Origin: Shigella phage ESH35
DNA: 64,000 nucleotides
Direction: 5' to 3' (one strand)
Sequence record: ON528745
Numbering within the stretch: the stretch's first letter is position 1; the number at the start of each line of letters is the position of its first letter. Made by a program: the position numbers and the translations under genes. Under the pieces are notes generated by a model. It ran no database searches. It had not been told where the DNA came from and saw only the letters and a list, made by a program, of their open reading frames with translations. This document shows, piece by piece, positions 1,907 to 44,691 of this stretch.

Positions 1907-2293
1907 GTGGAAGTTGGAAAAACTTATATCATTAACCCTTTATTTAAAAATGACTTTGCTAACGAGTGCCGTTGCAATGTAATGATGCTAAATTTAATAG
2001 AGAAGCACGGACCTAGTTTTGTTGTAGATGAAATGGAAAGTGATGATTGTGCTGGTGAATGTGTGGTACGTGTAACTATGGAAGATGGTACTGAATACAT
2101 GGCGGGTGGCCCACTTGAGACGTATTTTGAGATTTACTCTGAAGAATTCAAATACTTTACTGAGGTAACTTTAGAAAAGCCTCAATCCGCTAATGAAGGT
2201 ATAGTTTCTGGCGTAACAAAAATTCACTGCATTGTTGACGAAAACAATGTAGATGAAATCATTGAACTTTTGCGAAAAACTTTCAAAAAGTAG
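1907..2293 (+). CDS. Hypothetical protein (128 aa), paralog of the 2352-2726 ORF
   Basis: GTG start 6 nt after GAGGA; shares GKxY...HGxSFxVxxM...DGT...YFE pattern with the next ORF. Confidence 0.55.
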   Translation: MEVGKTYIINPLFKNDFANECRCNVMMLNLIEKHGPSFVVDEMESDDCAGECVVRVTMEDGTEYMAGGPLETYFEIYSEEFKYFTEVTLEKPQSANEGIVSGVTKIHCIVDENNVDEIIELLRKTFKK

Positions 2294-2322
2294 TTTACAA
2301 CGGGCTATGGTAATGATACTAT
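2293..2322 (+). promoter_or_regulatory. T4 early-type sigma70 promoter
   Basis: GTTTACA, 17-nt spacer, TACTAT; spacer contains inverted repeat GGCTAT...ATAGCC. Confidence 0.6.
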
Positions 2323-2351
2323 AGCCTTATCAACTACATGAGGAAATTAAA

Positions 2352-2726
2352 ATGATGGAAACTGGTAAATTTTACGTATTAGACCCTGCTGCAAAAAAAC
2401 GATTCATCGCTGGTAATCCTGATGCTAATTCGTGCATGGTCAAGTTGATGGAACAACATGGCAGTTCCTTCAAAGTCCTGGATATGTGTTATATTGAAGG
2501 TGATTATTTTGTTGAAAAAGTTGAAATGAAAGATGGCACCATCCTGAATAGTATGAGTGATGATGAGTACTTTGAACTCGCTGAATGGGAATTCTGTCAC
2601 TTCCTGGAAGTTGATAGCGATGCTTCTGATGATGTTGATGATACTCAAACCATTCATGTACAGGTAAATCATAAAAATGCGGCAGAAGTCATTGCACTGA
2701 TTAAAGCAACTTTTGATATTCAGTAA
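2352..2726 (+). CDS. Hypothetical protein (124 aa), paralog of the 1907-2293 ORF
   Basis: ATG after GAGGA; own early-type promoter upstream; acidic C-terminal half. Confidence 0.6.
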   Translation: MMETGKFYVLDPAAKKRFIAGNPDANSCMVKLMEQHGSSFKVLDMCYIEGDYFVEKVEMKDGTILNSMSDDEYFELAEWEFCHFLEVDSDASDDVDDTQTIHVQVNHKNAAEVIALIKATFDIQ

Positions 2727-2732
2727 AAAGTA

Positions 2733-2762
2733 GTGTACAACTAAATGGGGCTATGATATAAT
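2733..2762 (+). promoter_or_regulatory. T4 early-type sigma70 promoter
   Basis: GTGTACA, 17-nt spacer, TATAAT. Confidence 0.6.
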
Positions 2763-2799
2763 GGTCCCATACTGAGTTACCAAATAACTGGAGAATAAA

Positions 2800-3042
2800 A
2801 TGAGATTACAACGTCAGAGCATCAAAGATTCAGAAGTTAGAGGTAAATGGTATTTTAATATCATCGGTAAAGATTCTGAGCTCGTTGAAAAAGCTGAACA
2901 TCTTTTACGTGATATGGGGTGGGAAGATGAATGCGATGGATGTCCTCTTTATGAAGATGGAGAAAGCGCAGGATTCTGGATTTATCATTCTGACGTCGAT
3001 CAGTTTAAAACTGATTGGAAAATTGTGAAAAAGTCTGTTTGA
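2800..3042 (+). CDS. Hypothetical small protein (80 aa)
   Basis: ORF with RBS GGAG upstream; downstream of an early-type promoter. Confidence 0.55.
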   Translation: MRLQRQSIKDSEVRGKWYFNIIGKDSELVEKAEHLLRDMGWEDECDGCPLYEDGESAGFWIYHSDVDQFKTDWKIVKKSV

Positions 3043-3052
3043 GGAAAATATT

Positions 3053-3408
3053 ATGTCTGACATTCGTGTAGCTGGAATTGCTCGAGTAAGTATTCGTTGC
3101 CAACTTAAAACTGCGCCCGGGACGGCTTATATTAATTTATCACACGACCTATGTTCTAGTGAAAGACCATTAACTGGTGTAATTACGTTTTACGCTGGAG
3201 TTGGCGGAAACGAATTTACTGTAGGCGAATTTGTTGGTTGTAAATTAAAAGTTCAGAAGAATGTGTTAGAACTTTTTAGCGATCTTTATGGTGATAGTGA
3301 TGAAGTTTTTGATGAAATCGCGCAAGCAGTTAACAGAGGAATGGTAACTTTAGTTAAAATGATTAAAGATAGCGGATTTGCTTCTGGCCCCTTTCAGTGG
3401 GAGGTAAT

Positions 3409-5528: not shown

Positions 5529-5792
5529 ATGATTTTACGATTTAAAGATACTTCTGGTGTAGTTCTTTTTACACTTCCTAATCCAAGTGAGTTAGAAGTT
5601 CCAGGACCAAATCAGCCTATTATCATTTATGGTAAAAAGTATTATACTCATAAAATGACTCGTGAGTATTTTGATAATAAAATTTCCACAGTTAAAACTT
5701 CTTCTGATTGCTACTATGATATTACTGTTTTAACGGAACAACAATATGAAGAATTATTACCGCGCGGGCCGTCTATGCCAGGTAGTGAATAA
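5529..5792 (+). CDS. Hypothetical small protein (87 aa; start uncertain, TTG at 5517 possible)
   Basis: ATG at 5529 after GAGGA; overlaps the next ORF. Confidence 0.45.
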
Positions 5793-6072
5793 ATATAAAT
5801 CCGACTTTGATGTTAATATTCACCGCGGTACATTTTGGGGAAATTACGTCGGTAAAGATGCTGGCAGCCGGGAGGCTGCCATTGAATTATTCAAAAAAGA
5901 TTTTATACGTCGAATTAAATCCGGAGAAATAACTAAAGCACATTTAGAGCCTTTACGTGGAATGAGGCTAGGATGCACATGTAAACCAAAGCCGTGTCAT
6001 GGTGATATAATAGCTCATATAGTTAACCGATTGTTTAAAGACGATTTTCAAGTTGAGGACTTATGCAATTAA
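5746..6072 (+). CDS. Hypothetical protein with DUF4326-like Cys/His motif (108 aa)
   Basis: Product contains ...[22 protein letters not shown]... resembling the CxC...CHGD signature of DUF4326 proteins (recalled from memory); stop overlaps the nrdA start. Confidence 0.5.
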
Positions 6073-8327
6073 TTAATGTTATCAAAAGTAGTGGTGTTTC
6101 TCAGAGCTTTGACCCGCAAAAAATTATTAAAGTTTTATCTTGGGCAGCCGAAGGAACATCTGTAGATCCTTATGAATTATATGAAAATATTAAATCATAT
6201 CTCCGTGATGGAATGACCACTGATGACATTCAAACCATTGTAATTAAGGCTGCTGCGAATTCTATTTCAGTTGAAGAGCCTGATTATCAATACGTAGCCG
6301 CTCGCTGTTTAATGTTTGCTCTTCGTAAGCATGTTTACGGACAATATGAACCACGTTCATTTATTGACCATATTTCTTACTGTGTAAATGAAGGTAAATA
6401 TGACCCTGAACTGCTGTCAAAATATTCAGCAGAAGAAATTACATTTTTAGAATCAAAAATTAAGCACGAGCGGGATATGGAATTTACTTATTCCGGTGCG
6501 ATGCAATTAAAAGAAAAATATCTAGTTAAAGATAAAACCACTGGTCAAATTTATGAAACTCCGCAGTTTGCATTTATGACTATTGGAATGGCACTGCATC
6601 AAGATGAACCTGTTGATAGATTAAAACATGTTATTCGTTTTTATGAAGCAGTATCTACTCGACAGATTTCATTACCAACTCCTATTATGGCTGGTTGTCG
6701 TACTCCGACTCGACAGTTTAGTTCATGTGTTGTTATTGAGGCAGGTGATTCGCTGAAGTCTATTAATAAGGCTTCAGCTTCAATTGTTGAATATATCTCT
6801 AAACGCGCTGGAATTGGTATTAACGTTGGTATGATTCGTGCCGAAGGTTCTAAGATTGGCATGGGTGAAGTCCGCCATACTGGTGTTATTCCTTTTTGGA
6901 AACATTTTCAGACTGCTGTTAAATCATGCTCACAGGGTGGAATTCGTGGCGGCGCTGCTACTGCTTATTATCCTATTTGGCATTTGGAAGTTGAAAATCT
7001 TCTCGTTCTAAAAAATAACAAAGGTGTTGAAGAAAACCGTATTCGTCATATGGATTATGGTGTTCAGCTGAATGATTTGATGATGGAACGATTCGGAAAG
7101 AACGATTACATTACTTTGTTCAGTCCGCATGAAATGGGTGGCGAGCTTTATTATTCTTATTTTAAAGACCAAGACCGTTTCCGTGAATTATACGAAGCAG
7201 CAGAAAAAGACCCTAATATTCGTAAAAAACGTATTAAAGCCCGTGAACTATTTGAATTGCTCATGACTGAACGTTCAGGAACAGCAAGGATTTATGTACA
7301 GTTCATTGATAATACGAATAACTATACTCCGTTTATTCGTGAAAAAGCACCTATTCGTCAGAGTAACTTGTGCTGTGAAATTGCTATTCCAACAAATGAT
7401 GTGAATAGCCCCGATGCTGAAATTGGATTGTGTACTCTCTCTGCATTCGTACTGGATAATTTTGACTGGCAAGACCAAGATAAAATTAATGAATTGGCAG
7501 AAGTCCAAGTTCGTGCTCTTGATAATCTTTTGGATTACCAAGGATATCCAGTTCCTGAAGCAGAAAAAGCTAAAAAGCGTCGTAACCTCGGTGTAGGTGT
7601 TACCAACTATGCAGCTTGGCTGGCAAGTAACTTTGCTTCTTATGAAGATGCTAACGATTTAACACATGAACTATTTGAGAGATTACAGTATGGACTCATT
7701 AAAGCATCCATTAAGCTCGCCAAAGAAAAAGGACCTTGCGAATATTATTCAGACACTCGTTGGTCTCGAGGCGAATTACCTATCGACTGGTACAATAAAA
7801 AGATTGACCAAATCGCAGCTCCAAAATACGTTTGTGACTGGTCGTCGCTGCGGGAAGACCTTAAGCTCTTTGGCATCCGTAATAGCACATTATCAGCACT
7901 TATGCCATGTGAGTCATCTTCCCAAGTTTCTAACAGTACAAACGGTATCGAGCCTCCACGTGGACCAGTCTCTGTTAAAGAATCAAAAGAGGGCTCCTTT
8001 AATCAAGTCGTGCCCAATATTGAGCATAACATAGACCTCTATGATTATACATGGAAATTAGCTAAGAAAGGTAATAAACCTTATCTCACGCAGGTAGCTA
8101 TTATGCTGAAATGGGTTTGTCAATCAGCTTCGGCGAATACATATTATGACCCGCAGATTTTTCCAAAAGGAAAGGTTCCAATGTCAATAATGATTGATGA
8201 CATGCTATACGGATGGTATTATGGCATTAAAAACTTCTATTATCATAATACTCGTGATGGTTCCGGTACTGATGATTACGAAATAGAAACTCCAAAAGCC
8301 GATGATTGCGCAGCGTGTAAATTGTAA
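6063..8327 (+). CDS. nrdA: Aerobic ribonucleotide reductase large subunit
   Basis: 754-aa product with ATP-cone N-terminus and class I RNR catalytic core (NLCCEI, C-terminal CAACKL); T4 NrdA length. Confidence 0.95.
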   Translation: MQLINVIKSSGVSQSFDPQKIIKVLSWAAEGTSVDPYELYENIKSYLRDGMTTDDIQTIVIKAAANSISVEEPDYQYVAARCLMFALRKHVYGQYEPRSFIDHISYCVNEGKYDPELLSKYSAEEITFLESKIKHERDMEFTYSGAMQLKEKYLVKDKTTGQIYETPQFAFMTIGMALHQDEPVDRLKHVIRFYEAVSTRQISLPTPIMAGCRTPTRQFSSCVVIEAGDSLKSINKASASIVEYISKRAGIGINVGMIRAEGSKIGMGEVRHTGVIPFWKHFQTAVKSCSQGGIRGGAATAYYPIWHLEVENLLVLKNNKGVEENRIRHMDYGVQLNDLMMERFGKNDYITLFSPHEMGGELYYSYFKDQDRFRELYEAAEKDPNIRKKRIKARELFELLMTERSGTARIYVQFIDNTNNYTPFIREKAPIRQSNLCCEIAIPTNDVNSPDAEIGLCTLSAFVLDNFDWQDQDKINELAEVQVRALDNLLDYQGYPVPEAEKAKKRRNLGVGVTNYAAWLASNFASYEDANDLTHELFERLQYGLIKASIKLAKEKGPCEYYSDTRWSRGELPIDWYNKKIDQIAAPKYVCDWSSLREDLKLFGIRNSTLSALMPCESSSQVSNSTNGIEPPRGPVSVKESKEGSFNQVVPNIEHNIDLYDYTWKLAKKGNKPYLTQVAIMLKWVCQSASANTYYDPQIFPKGKVPMSIMIDDMLYGWYYGIKNFYYHNTRDGSGTDDYEIETPKADDCAACKL

Positions 8328-9058
8328 TGAATTATCAAAAAATCTATAATGACCTAATTTCCCGAGCTCAGGCTCGGGAATCTTTATCAGAATATAAAGA
8401 GACACATCATATAATCCCTAGATGTATGGGAGGTTCTGATGATAAGGAAAATTTAGTTGAATTAACAGCCAGAGAACATTTTATAGCTCATTTACTACTA
8501 TGTAAGATAAATGAAGGCCATTTTGGGCTTGCTTCTGCGTTAACGTTAATGGCAACAGATAAAGCTGGCAATAGAATTAATAACAGATTGTACAGCTTAC
8601 ACAGAAAATTATTTGCTAAAGCTAATTCTGAGTTCTTTAAGAAATATTGGAAAAATAATCCTCATCCTAAAGGAATGTTAGGCAAGCACCATAAAAACGA
8701 AACTAAACAGCATGTATCAAACGTGAATAGATATGCATGCCCATCTATAGAAATACATAAATTCTCATTAGATGGGGATTTCATAGAAACCTTTCACTCT
8801 ATTGCGGCAGCGTCCCGGTCAGTTAATGGAAACGGGTCAAATATCAAATATTGTGCCGAGGGTAAATTTCAATATGCTTATGGATTTAGATGGTCATATC
8901 AACTTGATGCAAAGTTTGACAAAATAAAACCAAGAGATTATAAAGGAATCCGCGGTAAGAAATGGATTAATAATGGAAGTGAATGCACGCTTATAGGTAA
9001 AGATGATATTATACCGCCAGGTTGGAAACACGGCAGAATTTTAAAGAGGAAAAATTAA
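8327..9058 (+). CDS. mobE: Freestanding HNH homing endonuclease (MobE-like)
   Basis: HNH motif ...THHIIPRCMGGSDDKENLVELTAREH... plus C-terminal IPPGWKHG module; inserted between nrdA and nrdB with ATGA/TAATG overlaps. Confidence 0.8.
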   Translation: MNYQKIYNDLISRAQARESLSEYKETHHIIPRCMGGSDDKENLVELTAREHFIAHLLLCKINEGHFGLASALTLMATDKAGNRINNRLYSLHRKLFAKANSEFFKKYWKNNPHPKGMLGKHHKNETKQHVSNVNRYACPSIEIHKFSLDGDFIETFHSIAAASRSVNGNGSNIKYCAEGKFQYAYGFRWSYQLDAKFDKIKPRDYKGIRGKKWINNGSECTLIGKDDIIPPGWKHGRILKRKN

Positions 9059-35891: not shown

Positions 35892-36134
35892 TTAAAAGCT
35901 TTCTTCTACTTCATCGTCTGAATCTTCTAATTCAGCTCTTTTTCCTGCCAAAGCATCTCTGACTGAGATGTCATCAGTATCTTTTAATTCAGTTTCTTTG
36001 ACTCTTTTCTTATAATAAGCTTCAAGTTCTTCTAAACCTTCTAATGTTTGACAAGAGGCAATTTTACTCATAAATTCATCAATAGAAGCTTCATAAAGAA
36101 ATTGTTTAAATTCTAGTAACATCTTTTTCTCCAA
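35892..36134 (-). CDS. uvsW.1: UvsW.1 small acidic protein
   Basis: 80-aa ORF immediately downstream of uvsW on the same strand. Confidence 0.6.
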   Translation of the reverse strand: MEKKMLLEFKQFLYEASIDEFMSKIASCQTLEGLEELEAYYKKRVKETELKDTDDISVRDALAGKRAELEDSDDEVEESF

Positions 36135-36147
36135 AGGGCCGAAGCCC

Positions 36148-37656
36148 TTATAAATTAACTGTTTTCATTACGTAATTAAATTTTTCATCTGCGTAGCGCT
36201 GAATACGATCAATGCCGTGTTTTAAAAGATAGTTCAAATGAACATATTTCTTTTTCGTATTAGCAGATTTTGGCTTAACGCCACAATCATCTATGAGGTC
36301 CCAGACGGTTGCTATTGTCTTAGAACCATGCTTACGTAATACACGACCGATTGTTTGTAATACAATGATTTTTGATTTAACACCGTGCGCTAAAACAACG
36401 TGATGCAGATTTTTAACTGAAATACCAGTAGAAAATACACCATAACTAGCTACTATAATTATTCCTTTACCATTTTCAGCTAAGGTTTTCATTATATTGC
36501 GGGTTTCGGTATCAACTTCCCCTGATACGTAATAAACTTTATCGTATTCATTTTTAATTAAATCGAAAATAGCTTTACCATGTGATACATGTTTAAACAT
36601 GACAAAAGCGTTTTCATCTTTTTGCGCAAGCTTAATAGCTAATTTAGCGATCCATTTATTTCTTTTACTAAGCCCCGTAATAATTTTTATTTCTTCTTGA
36701 TAAGTTTTTCCCTTTAATTTAGTAGTGAACTCATCGGGATAGCGAAGAAAAATACTATTAATTTTTAGCTCAGTTACTTGTCCATCTTCCATTAACTTAG
36801 AAGTCGTTACTGGCTTAAATATTTCACCAAACATTCCAACATACTGCATGATATTGGCTTTGCCATCACGTAATGAACCAGATAGACCAAATTTGAACAT
36901 GCAGTTATTTAAACCTGATATGATAGATGAAATACTTTTTCCTGTAGCAAGATGACATTCATCATTCATCATCATTCCAAACTGTGAGAACCATTCTTTT
37001 GGTTGTTTAACTACAGTTTGCCATGTACCAACAACGACTGGTGCATCATTTTTATATTTATCATCTTTTGATGCTCCGCCACCAATTTTCTTTATCATTG
37101 CATGACTGAATAAACGATAGTCAACGAAGTCATCAGCCATCTGAGTTGTTAGAGCAGTTGTTGGAACAATGATAAGAATTTTACCTTCGTAATTTTCCAA
37201 ATAATACCGAGCGAGCAGAGCCTGAATTAAAGATTTACCAGCGGATGTTGGAAGATTAAGAATTCTACGACGATTAACTAATCCTTCGAACACTGCATCT
37301 TTTTGATACCAGTGTGGTTCAATTCTTTTATTTCCTGAATAGATTTCTAATTTAGAAAGCCATTCATCAAAATCTTTTCTTGATAATTCTTCTTTTTCGT
37401 TAATTTGTGGGTCAATCCAGGCTTTATAGCCAAAGTTATCACAGAACTTTTTAATTTGCCCGACTAAGCCGAATGGAAGAAGACGATTATAATCTAAAAG
37501 ACGGATTCGTCCATCCCAGTTGCCATATCTGAAGCGAGGATTAAACCTATATCCATCGGCCTCAAACGAAAAGAAATCTCTTAATTCGTGGAACGTGCTC
37601 TCTTCACAATCGATGCGTACATGGCTGAAGTCGTGAAAATGTACTTTAATATCCAT
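36148..37656 (-). CDS. uvsW: RNA-DNA / DNA-DNA helicase UvsW
   Basis: 502-aa product with SF2 helicase motifs (LPTSAGKS Walker A, DECH box); T4 UvsW length. Confidence 0.9.
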   Translation of the reverse strand: MDIKVHFHDFSHVRIDCEESTFHELRDFFSFEADGYRFNPRFRYGNWDGRIRLLDYNRLLPFGLVGQIKKFCDNFGYKAWIDPQINEKEELSRKDFDEWLSKLEIYSGNKRIEPHWYQKDAVFEGLVNRRRILNLPTSAGKSLIQALLARYYLENYEGKILIIVPTTALTTQMADDFVDYRLFSHAMIKKIGGGASKDDKYKNDAPVVVGTWQTVVKQPKEWFSQFGMMMNDECHLATGKSISSIISGLNNCMFKFGLSGSLRDGKANIMQYVGMFGEIFKPVTTSKLMEDGQVTELKINSIFLRYPDEFTTKLKGKTYQEEIKIITGLSKRNKWIAKLAIKLAQKDENAFVMFKHVSHGKAIFDLIKNEYDKVYYVSGEVDTETRNIMKTLAENGKGIIIVASYGVFSTGISVKNLHHVVLAHGVKSKIIVLQTIGRVLRKHGSKTIATVWDLIDDCGVKPKSANTKKKYVHLNYLLKHGIDRIQRYADEKFNYVMKTVNL

Positions 37657-37658
37657 AA

Positions 37659-38276
37659 TTATGCCTTACTAAATTTGCCTTTAGAATCTCTTTTCATGAG
37701 ACGACCTTTAATAAATCCGTCGGGAATAATACCGTCTGGTTGTATTAATTTATTTATTGCACCATTATTGACCCAAAAAGTTCCTGTGGTAGTCGGTTTG
37801 ACTTTACATCCTTTTCTGGACTTTCTATTAGGATGAACCATCCCTTTTACAAATCCTTCTGGAACAAGTTCTCCAGGTTTAATAAAAATATTTTTAGTTC
37901 CATTAGTGTAACAAGTTGTACCTAATACCGTGCCCGGTGAGTTTTCAAATCTCTTAGCGGAAGATTCTTTCATCTTTGCTATAACCTCTGTAGTCATAAC
38001 AATTCCACCAATTCCACCAGGTTTCATATTATAATAATTTTTGCTTTTTATTATTTCAGGAGTTATAATTTCTTCTTCATACATGTACGCTTCTTCGGAA
38101 GTTTTAAACTCTTTTAGTATTGTTCTAGAGAAATTGTTTTCACCATATTTCTTTATAGCCTGCTGAATTGCCTTACCGGAACCAAGGTAACCATCATTCA
38201 AGTCATCAGTAGAGTGTTTTCCTATATACTTTTTACCATTTATTAGATTTGTTGTTTCATATACAAAGTGGTACAT
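37659..38276 (-). CDS. GIY-YIG homing endonuclease, Seg-like
   Basis: N-terminal GIY-YIG module MYHFVYETTNLINGKKYIGKH; C-terminal repeated IPxGFxKG DNA-binding motifs; freestanding upstream of uvsW; late promoter motif upstream. Confidence 0.8.
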   Translation of the reverse strand: MYHFVYETTNLINGKKYIGKHSTDDLNDGYLGSGKAIQQAIKKYGENNFSRTILKEFKTSEEAYMYEEEIITPEIIKSKNYYNMKPGGIGGIVMTTEVIAKMKESSAKRFENSPGTVLGTTCYTNGTKNIFIKPGELVPEGFVKGMVHPNRKSRKGCKVKPTTTGTFWVNNGAINKLIQPDGIIPDGFIKGRLMKRDSKGKFSKA

Positions 38277-38325
38277 ACTATTTTCCGAGTAATAAATATA
38301 TCTATATTTATACTGAGGAAATATT

Positions 38326-39006
38326 ATGATAGATAAAGATTATATTGCAGAGTTAAAGGCTCTTGATGATAATAAAGAAGCTAAAGCTAAATTAGCTGAA
38401 TATGCTGAGCAATTTGGTATAAAGGTCAAAAAGAATAAATCTTTTGATAATATCGTTGTTGATATTGAAGAAGCCCTCCAGAAGCTCGCTAGTGAACCTA
38501 TGCCAGAGACTGATGGGTTATCTATTAAAGACTTAATTGATGCTGCTGATGCTGCAGAGGGATTAAAATATGACGATGAAGAAGTTAATCCAGAAGCAGC
38601 ACTTCTGATTGATTCTCCAGTTAAATCTGATATTAAAATTGAAGTGGTAGAAACGGATAAAATTCCTGAAAATACTGATGTTTTGATTGAAGACACTCCT
38701 TTTGTTGAAGAAAAGTTTGAACAAGCTGTAGATAAGATTATTGAATCTGAAAAGCCGTCTGTATTTACTCTTCCGGAAAACTTTAGCCCGAATCTTCAGC
38801 TGATTGGAAAAAATCCAGGATTCTGCACTGTTCCTTGGTGGATTTACCAATGGATTGCTGAAACTCCGGATTGGAAATCTCACCCAACTAGTTTTGAGCA
38901 TGCTTCTGCACACCAAACATTATTTAGCTTAATTTATTACATTAACCGTGACGGATCAGTTCTAATTCGTGAAACACGCAATTCTTCTTTCGTAACATTA
39001 AAATAA
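38326..39006 (+). CDS. inh: Inh-like protein (inhibitor of prohead protease; assignment by position)
   Basis: 226-aa acidic ORF immediately upstream of hoc, as T4 inh. Confidence 0.6.
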   Translation: MIDKDYIAELKALDDNKEAKAKLAEYAEQFGIKVKKNKSFDNIVVDIEEALQKLASEPMPETDGLSIKDLIDAADAAEGLKYDDEEVNPEAALLIDSPVKSDIKIEVVETDKIPENTDVLIEDTPFVEEKFEQAVDKIIESEKPSVFTLPENFSPNLQLIGKNPGFCTVPWWIYQWIAETPDWKSHPTSFEHASAHQTLFSLIYYINRDGSVLIRETRNSSFVTLK

Positions 39007-41736: not shown

Positions 41737-41760
41737 GGGACCGAAAGGTCCCTTTGTTTT
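41737..41760. terminator. Bidirectional terminator between rnlB (+) and gene 24 (-)
   Basis: GGGACC-GAAA-GGTCCC flanked by AAAAA / TTTGTTTT. Confidence 0.75.
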
Positions 41761-43042
41761 ATTCATCAACAATAATTTTTGGTAATTTAACACCTAATAA
41801 AACAGACAAATCTGAACGACCCGCCATTTTATCCATGTCTCCACCATCAATTACTCTTGCTTCTTTTTCATCTTTTGCTACAGTGTAAGGATTTGCAGAT
41901 AAAGCATATCTAACTAATAAACCGATAGATGGCTGCAAACTTTCTGGGTCAACTACAACTTTAAATGCACCTACATGTTCAGGGTCATCTAAGTCGAGAC
42001 CTTCTGTATACGGAGCATAGAAAATTGATCCAACAATTTCTTTTTCACCGATATTTTCTACTACGCCAACGATTACATAATCTAATGGGCTGTTAGTATC
42101 GCAATAAAGCGGTAAACCATTAGCTAAGAACCCGTAGGCATTTTGTGAAAGATATTTATCATCTTCTGGTTTATGTTTTAACCAACCTGATGCAGCAAGA
42201 ATCGCAGCGGCACGAGCTGAAGCAACACAGAACGTTGCTGTATAAGTTGATTCTTTTTGGATATGCGAAACCATTTCACATACCATTCGGTATAATGAAC
42301 GACCAGCTTCAGGAGCAGATGCATAACTCAAATCAATGAATCCAGTATCAGTAATTCCTGTAACTTTATAGCGTTTTGACACTGTAATCAAAGACTGCAG
42401 AATATCTTTATTGATTTCATCTGCCATTTCAGTTGCAAGCAAATCTTCCAAGAAATTAGGAGCATCGAATCCATTTGCTTCTAAATCTTGCGCTAATTCA
42501 ACTGTGATGCCAGTTTTAAGTTTACGAGATTTAACCGCGGTTTGCCATTTATTAATCTGAAATCTAGCATCCGCAATTTCGCTATCAGAGCTTTCAAATT
42601 TGCTTGTTGACGCTGCGTCAGAAAATAGACGAACCTTTAAAAGAACAATTGCAATCTGAAGAGCTAACTCTAAGTCGCTTTCTTCAATATCAGCGAATGG
42701 AGTATCTTCTAATACTTTATAAACGATGTTATTATATTTGAATAAATCGCCTTTATTGAGAGTTAATTTAGACTCTTCTGTTAATTCTGTGATTTGTTCT
42801 CGGTCTACATATCCAGCTTCGCCAGCGTAAGTAGCACCAGTTTTAAATGTAAATTCATTGTCTGGGTTAAGGTATTTGATACCATAAAAAGCAGCAACAG
42901 GTTGATTAGTTCTTTGCGTTGCTACAATGTCAGAATATATTAATTTAGTGGTAGCGCGAGTCAAAGCAACGAGATTTGGGCGACCGATTGAGTTGCTATT
43001 CGTTGTGGTTGATTCGCGCAGAAGTTCGTTGATTTTAGCCAT
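41759..43042 (-). CDS. 24: Head vertex protein gp24
   Basis: 427-aa product, paralog of the major capsid protein; T4 gp24 length. Confidence 0.9.
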   Translation of the reverse strand: MAKINELLRESTTTNSNSIGRPNLVALTRATTKLIYSDIVATQRTNQPVAAFYGIKYLNPDNEFTFKTGATYAGEAGYVDREQITELTEESKLTLNKGDLFKYNNIVYKVLEDTPFADIEESDLELALQIAIVLLKVRLFSDAASTSKFESSDSEIADARFQINKWQTAVKSRKLKTGITVELAQDLEANGFDAPNFLEDLLATEMADEINKDILQSLITVSKRYKVTGITDTGFIDLSYASAPEAGRSLYRMVCEMVSHIQKESTYTATFCVASARAAAILAASGWLKHKPEDDKYLSQNAYGFLANGLPLYCDTNSPLDYVIVGVVENIGEKEIVGSIFYAPYTEGLDLDDPEHVGAFKVVVDPESLQPSIGLLVRYALSANPYTVAKDEKEARVIDGGDMDKMAGRSDLSVLLGVKLPKIIVDE

Positions 43043-43069
43043 TGCGCTTTCCTTTTGGTTTATATGATT

Positions 43070-43077
43070 TATTTATA
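43070..43077 (-). promoter_or_regulatory. T4 late promoter (TATAAATA on minus strand) for gene 24
   Basis: TATTTATA on + strand about 28 nt upstream of the gene 24 start. Confidence 0.6.
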
Positions 43078-43092
43078 CCATAAAAACAACTA

Positions 43093-43112
43093 AAGGGACC
43101 CGAAGGTCCCTT
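43093..43112 (-). terminator. Terminator hairpin downstream of gene 23
   Basis: AAGGGACC-CGAA-GGTCCCTT. Confidence 0.75.
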
Positions 43113-43125
43113 AAATCGTCAAAGA

Positions 43126-44691
43126 TTAGATACCTTTAACATATACACGTCTAAAGTAAGCGTTTTTACCAAGGCTATTCAGAATAGAAGGCATACCGCT
43201 CTGGATGCGAGAAGCCGGAGCCTGAGCAGCGGATTCTGCAAATGGGTTGATACCGATACCGTAACGAGTTTTGAATCCCATTACCGGTTGGAAGTTCTTC
43301 GGATCGGAACCACGCAGCGGAGTCAGAGCTACATATGGAGCATAGTAAATACCAGCATCCATTTCGTTCGGACCTTTATAACCTACAGTGAAATAATCCT
43401 GCTTAGCATACTGGTCGATATATACACGGTATTTACCACCCAGAACACCAGCAAATACTGACTTGGTAGTATCAGTGTTAAAGCCGGTAGCCAGACCCTG
43501 TGCAGCATAAGAAATGCCAGTATCAACTGAAGCCAGAACGTTAACTACGTTACGGGAAGCGATAATGAAGTTACCTTCACCACGACCGGTCTGACGAGCA
43601 ATTTCAACTGCTTCTTTGTCAATCTGGAACAGCAGAGCTTTAAAGGATTCACCCGCCCAGCGAGCACCACGAATATCAATTGGATCCTGGAAGTCAAACA
43701 CACCAGCTTTAGAACCCGGAGTCAGGGTCATACCAGATTTACCAACCTGAGCTGAGTAGTTAATCCAATCAACAACTTCACGGTTGATTTCCAGCATGAT
43801 TTCGGTAGCCAGAATACCAGACAGTTCAGCATCAGCATCCATACCGTGAACAGCGCGGAGGTCTTGTGCTAATTCGATAGAGTAAGCAGCTTTCAGCTGA
43901 CGAGATTTAGCTTCGATAACTTGTTTATCGATACGGAAGCCCATTTCATTCCATGGGTTATCGGTAGAACCGTTGAAACCTTCCTGAAGTTCAGCGATAG
44001 AAGTAGCCATGCCTTCAGCGATTTCTACCAGTACACCAGCTTCCATTTGTTTCTTAACTTCGGCATCTAATTTAGCAGCATCAGTCGCACTAGCATCGAT
44101 TGTTACTACAGCGGAAGCTTGCAGATACACAGTACCAGTTTCCTGGAAGAAGTGAGTATAGATATCACCTACAACGGTTTGTGTGCTAGCAGCCAGAGCT
44201 GGGAATTTCTTAGCAGCACCCTGACCAGAGAACATTGCATCTGGACCATACATTGGGTGGAATGCTTCTTTAGCATCGGCAGCGATTGGGTCTTTACCAT
44301 ATACTGCGCGGAGTGCGAATACCTGACCGGTTGGGCTGTTCATCGGCTGAACACCGCAAATATCGAAAGCAATCAGGTTAGGAATAGCACGACGTACCAT
44401 ACCCATAACAGCTGGGCCAATCTGAGTTACTGCGCCAGAAGTCTGACCTGCAGCGATGTTAGTAGCGTTGTAACCGTGGTCACCACCGATTTCAGCTTCT
44501 GTTAAGAAAGAACCAAATGCCTGAGCAATTTTTTCGTCTTTATATTCCGGAGCTGTCTGGAAATCTTTTTCCTGGTTTTCAAAGATTTTAGCGATAATCG
44601 CTTGTTTGCTATTAGCAATTTCCGGTAAACCTTCACCTTCCAGTAATGGCTTCCATTTGTTCAAAAGTTCAGCTTTAGTTTTGATAGTCAT
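43126..44691 (-). CDS. 23: Major capsid protein gp23
   Basis: 521-aa product MTIKTKAELLNKWKPLLEGEGLPEIANSKQAI...; T4 gp23. Confidence 0.95.
   Translation of the reverse strand: MTIKTKAELLNKWKPLLEGEGLPEIANSKQAIIAKIFENQEKDFQTAPEYKDEKIAQAFGSFLTEAEIGGDHGYNATNIAAGQTSGAVTQIGPAVMGMVRRAIPNLIAFDICGVQPMNSPTGQVFALRAVYGKDPIAADAKEAFHPMYGPDAMFSGQGAAKKFPALAASTQTVVGDIYTHFFQETGTVYLQASAVVTIDASATDAAKLDAEVKKQMEAGVLVEIAEGMATSIAELQEGFNGSTDNPWNEMGFRIDKQVIEAKSRQLKAAYSIELAQDLRAVHGMDADAELSGILATEIMLEINREVVDWINYSAQVGKSGMTLTPGSKAGVFDFQDPIDIRGARWAGESFKALLFQIDKEAVEIARQTGRGEGNFIIASRNVVNVLASVDTGISYAAQGLATGFNTDTTKSVFAGVLGGKYRVYIDQYAKQDYFTVGYKGPNEMDAGIYYAPYVALTPLRGSDPKNFQPVMGFKTRYGIGINPFAESAAQAPASRIQSGMPSILNSLGKNAYFRRVYVKGI

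Follow-up and report, generated by a model that had tools for sequence, protein, structure and literature searches.

Between inh (hoc.1) and uvsW, the stretch of Shigella phage ESH35 DNA analysed here (64,000 nt of sequence record ON528745; hereafter the window) carries an open reading frame for a homing endonuclease, preceded on its own strand by a motif of the T4 late promoter type. The locus raises the question of whether such a gene brings a promoter with it and is expressed independently of its neighbours, as an initial annotation of this DNA proposed, or occupies a place behind a promoter that already served its target gene. We consider it highly probable that the ORF is a homing segE, inserted behind the ancestral uvsW promoter and linked to a recoded block at the start of uvsW, its activity being extrapolated from that of T4 SegE. 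The gene itself is already known: it has been described since the 1990s, with its activity, target and homing, and is routinely annotated, so the discovery value of the locus is small. The reading of the promoter is corrected, in that the endonuclease would parasitise the late promoter of its target gene and bring none of its own. Modest additions are the population-scale linkage between segE and the uvsW block, an Arg-less active-site signature of the Seg type and an uncatalogued repeat module. The features of the locus are collected in Table 1.

Table 1 Features of the segE locus and its neighbours in the window
Feature	Position	Strand	Description	Basis
segE CDS	37659..38276	-	205 aa and stop; free-standing GIY-YIG homing endonuclease	ORF list, SegE identity, Pfam
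GIY-YIG catalytic domain	38001..38276	-	approximately aa 1-92	alignment, hhalign, AlphaFold2, Foldseek
Repeat module 1	37842..37913	-	aa 122-145, CYTNGTKNIFIKPGELVPEGFVKG; predicted beta-hairpin and loop	
Repeat module 2	37701..37778	-	aa 167-192, FWVNNGAINKLIQPDGIIPDGFIKGR; the copy conserved across the SegE family	
T4-type late promoter box TATAAATA	38305..38312	-	28 nt before the segE ATG; exact match	
Weak Shine-Dalgarno-like GGAA	38283..38286	-	6 nt ahead of the segE ATG	sequence
Candidate embedded uvsW promoter AATAAATA	37751..37758	-	~95 nt before uvsW; sole near-consensus candidate within segE	
uvsW ribosome-binding site AAGG	37664..37667	-	within the last segE codons	
uvsW helicase gene	36148..37656	-	502 aa; ATG 2 nt past the segE stop, junction TAATTATG	
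segE-linked uvsW 5' block	37521..37656	-	first ~136 nt of uvsW; mostly synonymous divergence	
Putative mobile cassette	37521..38288	-	~770 bp: 12-nt leader, segE, 2-nt spacer, ~136 nt of uvsW	
Candidate inh late promoter AATAAATA	38291..38298	+	27 nt upstream of inh	
inh, prohead protease inhibitor	38326..39006	+	226 aa; divergent from segE; a 376-aa ORF is next	

Identity of segE and its catalytic domain

The ORF list of the window gives an ATG-initiated frame of 205 codons, and a full-length protein comparison finds 202 of its 205 residues shared with T4 SegE (NP_049795 / UniProt P18060; E=2e-154), the three substitutions relative to T4 being I75L, E97D and T120K. It matches Pfam family PF19835 (SegE_GIY-YIG) at 37.6 bits, the gathering cut-off being 25, and its top PHROG is PHROG 314, homing endonuclease (8.7e-44). 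The ORF is oriented as uvsW, and the order hoc-inh / segE-uvsW is that of T4; protein length, locus, upstream TATAAATA and junction sequences are likewise those of T4, whereas the window belongs to another Tequatrovirus isolate. Aplg8, ESh17/18 and slur07 match it best at the DNA level (99.2-100% identity); over a 1.2-kb junction they and PhiZZ30 are the best matches, at 99.2-99.4%, and many of the phage records matched in a megablast search with the junction carry the annotation segE or "homing endonuclease". The initial annotation had described a Seg-like GIY-YIG endonuclease ahead of uvsW; the gene is segE itself, at the inh/uvsW site that comparison of the ORF map with the T4 annotation shows to be canonical for it, and all the peptides quoted for it are found, YHFVYETTNLINGKKYIGKH as residues 2-21, VPEGFVKG as residues 138-145 and IPDGFIKG as residues 184-191.

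T4 SegE is listed as an active free-standing GIY-YIG endonuclease; its gene lies between inh and uvsW, the latter being the target (PMC2988022, PMC2330249). It cuts the DNA of the segE-less phages RB30 and RB52 at the inh(hoc.1)/uvsW junction, and in crosses of T4 with RB30 the homing of segE is nearly 100% efficient and flanking markers are co-converted (PMC2330249, PMC2988022; the source on T4 SegE is Kadyrov et al. 1997, as cited in these two papers).

Homologues were compared in an alignment of 52 full-length sequences that are 31-67% identical to SegE. Invariant among them are Y6, Y17, G19, D28, Y30, G32-S33-G34, K43, G45, N83 and G87-G88-x-G90, while H21 and E67 are conserved in at least 90%; within this set H21, D28, Y30, G32-S33-G34 and K43 are specific to the family. 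The GIY/YIG motif of the first two beta-strands is represented by F-V-Y6 and Y17-I-G19, both invariant in the 52 homologues, which align with Y6 and Y17-V-G19 of I-TevI. In an hhalign comparison of the SegE profile with I-TevI (E=6.9e-6), Y6, Y17, G19, E67 and N83 correspond to I-TevI Y6, Y17, G19, E75 and N90, the metal-binding Glu (E75) and N90 thus both being matched. An AlphaFold2 model (mean pLDDT 85.8, and 93-97 over residues 1-80) has a beta-beta-alpha-beta-alpha core, a linker helix at 96-112 and two small beta-hairpin modules. The I-TevI catalytic domain (1mk0/1ln0) provides the top three Foldseek matches in the PDB, with a probability of 1.00 and target-normalised TM scores of 0.61-0.65, and beyond that domain nothing in the PDB rose above chance; a single-sequence phmmer search of SegE against the PDB gave chance matches only, whereas the profile and fold searches reached I-TevI. 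I-TevI (PDB 1LN0, 1MK0) is the best structural match to the SegE catalytic fold, but it is intron-encoded and SegE is free-standing, and the zinc finger, NUMOD3 and helix-turn-helix of I-TevI are unmatched in SegE, which has two W-x-x-N-G...IP-x-G-F-x-K-G modules instead.

The one canonical element that could not be placed is the catalytic Arg. Residues D23-H31 of I-TevI, R27 included, fall in a nine-residue gap in both the HMM and the profile alignments, and no conserved Arg stands between Y17 and E67 in the 52-homologue alignment. Such a gap would be expected of a decaying or domesticated remnant that has no nuclease activity and is retained for the ribosome-binding site of uvsW, an essential late gene, which does lie inside the last segE codons, and possibly for an internal promoter, since embedded promoters favour the retention of endonuclease genes (PMC2988022). 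A remnant of this kind is nevertheless most improbable: the ORF is not truncated and has 99% identity to T4 SegE, which is listed as active and as driving homing, Y6, Y17, G19, E67 and N83 are conserved over the 52 homologues down to ~31% identity, SegE protein has been detected in T4 infection (PMC9697503 supplement), and the Arg-less signature YIGxHSxxxLNDGYxGSG is common to SegA and SegB, which like SegE are listed as active (PMC2988022).

The comparison with the T4 Seg proteins, which the initial annotation had suggested, identified SegE as the orthologue, and SegA, SegB and SegD as sharing its N-terminal signature, Y-x-[IV]TN-x-[IV]N-x-K-x-Y-[IY]-G-x-H-[SA]-T-x-[DE]-x-[ND]-D-G-Y-[LM]-G-S-G...KYG...E...YN...GG-x-G. 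All three have the same shortened YIGxHSTxxLNDGYxGSG segment, with the Arg27 region likewise absent and the 9-aa deletion relative to I-TevI in common with SegE, to which they are 32-38% identical overall; their C-terminal regions, insertion sites and targets differ. The proposal to judge the gene by its catalytic Arg and Glu had a divided outcome: the Glu is E67, but the Arg is not alignable, and the Arg criterion cannot refute activity because SegA and SegB are without it and are listed as active, so the check does not discriminate. Another basic residue, such as K20/H21, K43 or R51, may replace the Arg in space. T4 SegG is uninformative on SegE because it is too divergent (hhalign of the SegE family profile against SegG, E=0.12, not significant).

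The late promoter box ahead of segE and a probable shared transcript

A late motif on the minus strand had been reported about 25 nt upstream of the gene. The motif is an exact TATAAATA, but its distance is 28 nt, and it lies outside the interval, ending at 38300, that had been assigned to the gene. It agrees with T4 late (gp55-dependent) promoters, which require no -35 element, in its exact -10 sequence and in its typical spacing from the start codon. A search for alternatives upstream of segE found neither a MotA box (the sole TGCTT lies far upstream, at 38598) nor a convincing sigma-70 site; an early or middle promoter for segE was rejected on these grounds.

In intergenic DNA rich in AT, short boxes of this kind also arise by chance, at an expected ~9 per 64 kb, and TATAAATA upstream of segE might accordingly have no promoter function at all. 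We give this very little credence. The window holds twice the expected number, 19 exact matches against 9.4 +/- 3.2, of which ten lie 14-28 nt ahead of a long same-strand ORF. Five are at 27-28 nt, ahead of segE (28 nt) and of genes for proteins of 427, 269, 524 and 659 aa, structural late genes included, so that the distance at segE fits the spacing of four other window genes. The box is also conserved in phages with segE, in phages without it and in the Gelderlandvirus STP4-a, and segE and uvsW are late in T4, with MotA or a convincing sigma-70 alternative absent from the locus.

Expression data from T4 agree with a late promoter. Time-resolved omics place segE, uvsW and inh in the late class at both the RNA and the protein level, and one sampling time marks the onset of abundance for both the SegE and the UvsW protein (PMC9697503 supplement). 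It is also established that a late promoter serves the expression of UvsW (PMC3016281). The late expression of segE that had been proposed from the motif is borne out by these T4 classes.

The box does not, however, belong to segE alone. The window, T4 and RB30 (Y13611) do not differ anywhere in the intergenic stretch between the inh start and the end of TATAAATATAGATATATTTATTAC, and in RB30, which is without segE, 29 nt separate the same TATAAATA from the uvsW ATG downstream. Box and context are also identical in fPS-90 and SA21RB, two further segE-less phages whose records label these 8 nt as a predicted late promoter for the helicase gene. Alleles with and without segE diverge only from 16 nt downstream of TATAAATA, and STP4-a has the same layout of TATAAATA, a segE-like ORF, 2 nt and uvsW. 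Because box and context are identical in segE-less phages, and precede uvsW by 29 nt in RB30, TATAAATA is not segE's own; it is probably the ancestral late promoter of uvsW, behind which segE has come to lie, and would now drive segE and probably uvsW as well.

The "own late promoter" of the initial annotation is therefore not supported, nor is the independence from neighbouring genes that went with it. An autonomous promoter that arrived with the endonuclease cassette would suit an exact box that lies in non-coding DNA 28 nt upstream of the ATG, and segE has been placed among the endonuclease genes that are transcribed from a promoter in their upstream non-coding region (PMC2988022). Such an origin is very unlikely all the same, given that phages which lost segE, or never carried it, have the same box and the same sequence on its whole inh side, that the alleles differ only beyond the 16th nucleotide past the box, that just 2 nt and no terminator separate the segE stop from the uvsW start, and that the SegE and UvsW proteins rise together in T4.

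As far as can be read from the sequence, then, segE is inserted exactly between the putative uvsW late promoter and uvsW. Because segE lies between promoter and uvsW, with a gap of 2 nt, the two genes are most likely on one late transcript, and a shared late segE-uvsW mRNA would be the most economical reading; no convincing sigma-70 site or terminator was found between them. Transcription directed by gp55 would begin a few nucleotides downstream of TATAAATA and yield this mRNA. segE is counted among the endonuclease genes with a recognisable translation initiation region (PMC2988022). According to the same source, segE also contains an embedded promoter that serves the downstream gene (PMC2988022), so uvsW may not rely solely on the upstream TATAAATA. 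The embedded candidate listed in Table 1 falls on the codons of A-I-N-K, a conserved stretch in repeat module 2, and coding constraint confounds its conservation.

On the other strand, the 49-nt spacer between inh and segE holds two divergent late-promoter-like boxes, AATAAATA (+) and TATAAATA (-), within 38291..38312, and both are also found in segE-less RB30. Each box lies beyond the predicted start of the other, so the predicted inh and segE transcripts would overlap by a few nucleotides at their 5' ends. A late promoter upstream of inh has been mentioned (PMC2988022), and the T4 record X14869 annotates putative promoters directed towards inh in the inh/segE stretch.

Distribution of segE and the linked uvsW block

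Megablast with the 1.2-kb inh/uvsW junction as query matched 508 phage records, nearly all of them Tequatrovirus. Of these, 166 carry segE (158 records with the ORF at 95% identity or more, and eight, from Salmonella Gelderlandviruses, at ~69%) and ~342 do not, both counts being swollen by RefSeq/GenBank duplicates. The segE-less records align in two pieces over a span of 585 bp, as against 1201 bp of the query, which amounts to a clean absence of ~616 bp. The gene is accordingly polymorphic in presence and absence at a fixed site, as the initial annotation had expected of a mobile endonuclease, and universal conservation is ruled out. A homologue of 243 aa, ~48% identical to SegE by BLASTP (61% in the MAFFT alignment) and representing 22 member sequences, bears the NCBI label "GIY-YIG nuclease family protein [Escherichia coli]"; the underlying DNA in these bacterial assemblies presumably comes from phages or prophages.

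The difference between the two alleles extends past segE into the helicase gene. Over nt 1-136 uvsW is 72.8% identical to that of RB30, a figure that rises to 98.2% over nt 136-300, and the 36 nucleotide differences in the block amount to only 5 amino acid differences. A sliding comparison with three segE-less genomes limits the dip in identity to the very start of uvsW. When eight phages were aligned, two with segE and six without, the differences per 50-column bin of uvsW were 16, 13 and 11, then 0-3, and all those in the block split the phages with segE from those without it perfectly. The same linkage is seen among the junction records, where the segE-linked uvsW haplotype occurs at 95% identity or more in 157 records, against 158 with segE at that level, and the RB30-type junction haplotype at 95% identity or more in 332, against the ~342 segE-less junctions. 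Since the counts of the uvsW block track those of segE, the polymorphic unit is taken to be ~770 bp long (38288..37521, minus strand). Its left edge falls directly after TTATTAC and its right edge where divergence drops from 27% to 2%. The clean co-travel of segE with a short recoded piece of uvsW is in this way documented across ~500 genomes.

The block probably represents target-site immunity or a co-converted flank. It would be expected if the SegE recognition site spans the junction and the start of uvsW and the carrier is immune, and equally expected if it is the fossil of a co-conversion tract from a distant donor; a sharply bounded block linked to segE is consistent with non-reciprocal transfer with co-conversion. 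The locus of the Gelderlandvirus STP4-a was tried as a donor and rejected, being only 67.6% identical over the block, and no clear donor was found; at 37 diagnostic sites in the block, STP4-a shares 16 with the window and 9 with RB30.

If the enzyme behaves as reported for T4, then in a mixed infection with a segE-less relative SegE would cut the segE-less inh(hoc.1)/uvsW allele, and recombinational repair from the segE-bearing genome would copy segE and flanking markers into the recipient. The carrier genome would be protected, the insertion of segE and the recoded uvsW block together destroying the recognition site.

The C-terminal modules and other endonucleases of the window

The tandem IPxGFxKG repeats that had been pointed out as DNA-binding elements are both present, but they are only the ends of a longer module of ~25 aa, at aa 122-145 and 167-192, with the consensus [WY]-x-[TN]-N-G-x2-N-x2-I-x4/5-[IV]-P-[DE]-G-F-x-K-G. 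In the 52 homologues G165, W168, G172, G191 and R192 are invariant or nearly so, and the number of module copies in homologues ranges from 0 to 4, in tandem. No Pfam family matched the C-terminal 104 aa of SegE, even at E<=10. With residues 118-205 as query, an exhaustive phmmer search matched 634 cluster representatives at E<=0.001, and single proteins contained as many as seven matched stretches. Among the best 100 of these 634 matches, Pfam at E<=0.001 assigned SegE_GIY-YIG to 19, GIY-YIG to 13, NUMOD3 to 19 and HNH or HNH_3 to four, and many were without any Pfam family at that threshold.

The module also occurs in other phage endonucleases. T4 SegB likewise ends in it (W...IPEGWFKGR), as does MobE of the window (W-I-N-N-G...IPPGWKHGR, KKWINNGSECTLIGKDDIIPPGWKHGR), which has the free-standing intergenic lifestyle of SegE in common with it but differs in its catalytic domain, an HNH domain with a NUMOD1 motif in addition, where SegE has GIY-YIG. 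Because of the company that the module keeps and the modular design of such enzymes, it is reasonable to suppose, by analogy, that the C-terminal modules bind DNA and would supply this function in SegE. An uncatalogued repeat module common to GIY-YIG and HNH phage endonucleases could be of interest for the engineering of DNA-targeting domains.

These observations can be joined in a single reading, which we put forward tentatively and at somewhat less than even likelihood. The ~770-bp cassette would be the unit that moves, with the 136-nt recoded arm of uvsW (73% identity, approximately genus-level divergence) acting as its immunity determinant and marking the recognition sequence; the two modules (W-x-x-N-G...IP-x-G-[FW]-x-K-G-R) would bind DNA, and the Seg-type GIY-YIG domain would work without the Arg helix.

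Within the 64 kb, segE and mobE were the only homing-endonuclease genes found. MobE is a full-length HNH endonuclease of 243 aa encoded at 8327..9058 on the plus strand, between nrdA and nrdB; across its initial 104 aa it is only 64% identical to T4 MobE, and T4 RefSeq has a mobE of 141 aa and a separate nrdB.1 of 83 aa. By tblastn the window has no homologues of T4 SegD, SegG, I-TevI or I-TevIII, all of which the corresponding T4 region has. At the gene 23/24 gap, where T4 has segD, the window ORFs of 521 aa (44691..43126) and 427 aa (43042..41759) are 83 nt apart, at ~43043..43125.

Downstream of segE, uvsW and uvsW.1 (35892..36134) are separate ORFs in the window, both on the minus strand. 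The T4 records NC_000866 and AF158101 keep a fused uvsW of 587 aa (5678..7441 of the compared T4 stretch), a known discrepancy that was corrected by resequencing (PMC1524935). In STP4-a, the uvsW homologue (2119..3099 onwards of the compared locus) reads ...MMNDEC|FDGDTLIKTPNGDVKIKDIKPGDKIYSY..., compared with DECH in T4-type UvsW. The interruption looks like an intein of the Hint type in helicase motif II, as far as the sequence alone can tell, and the STP4-a record divides uvsW into several CDSs. The segE-like ORF of the same phage is annotated from an internal ATG (136 aa), whereas a start at the GTG at 1481 gives an ORF of 211 aa.
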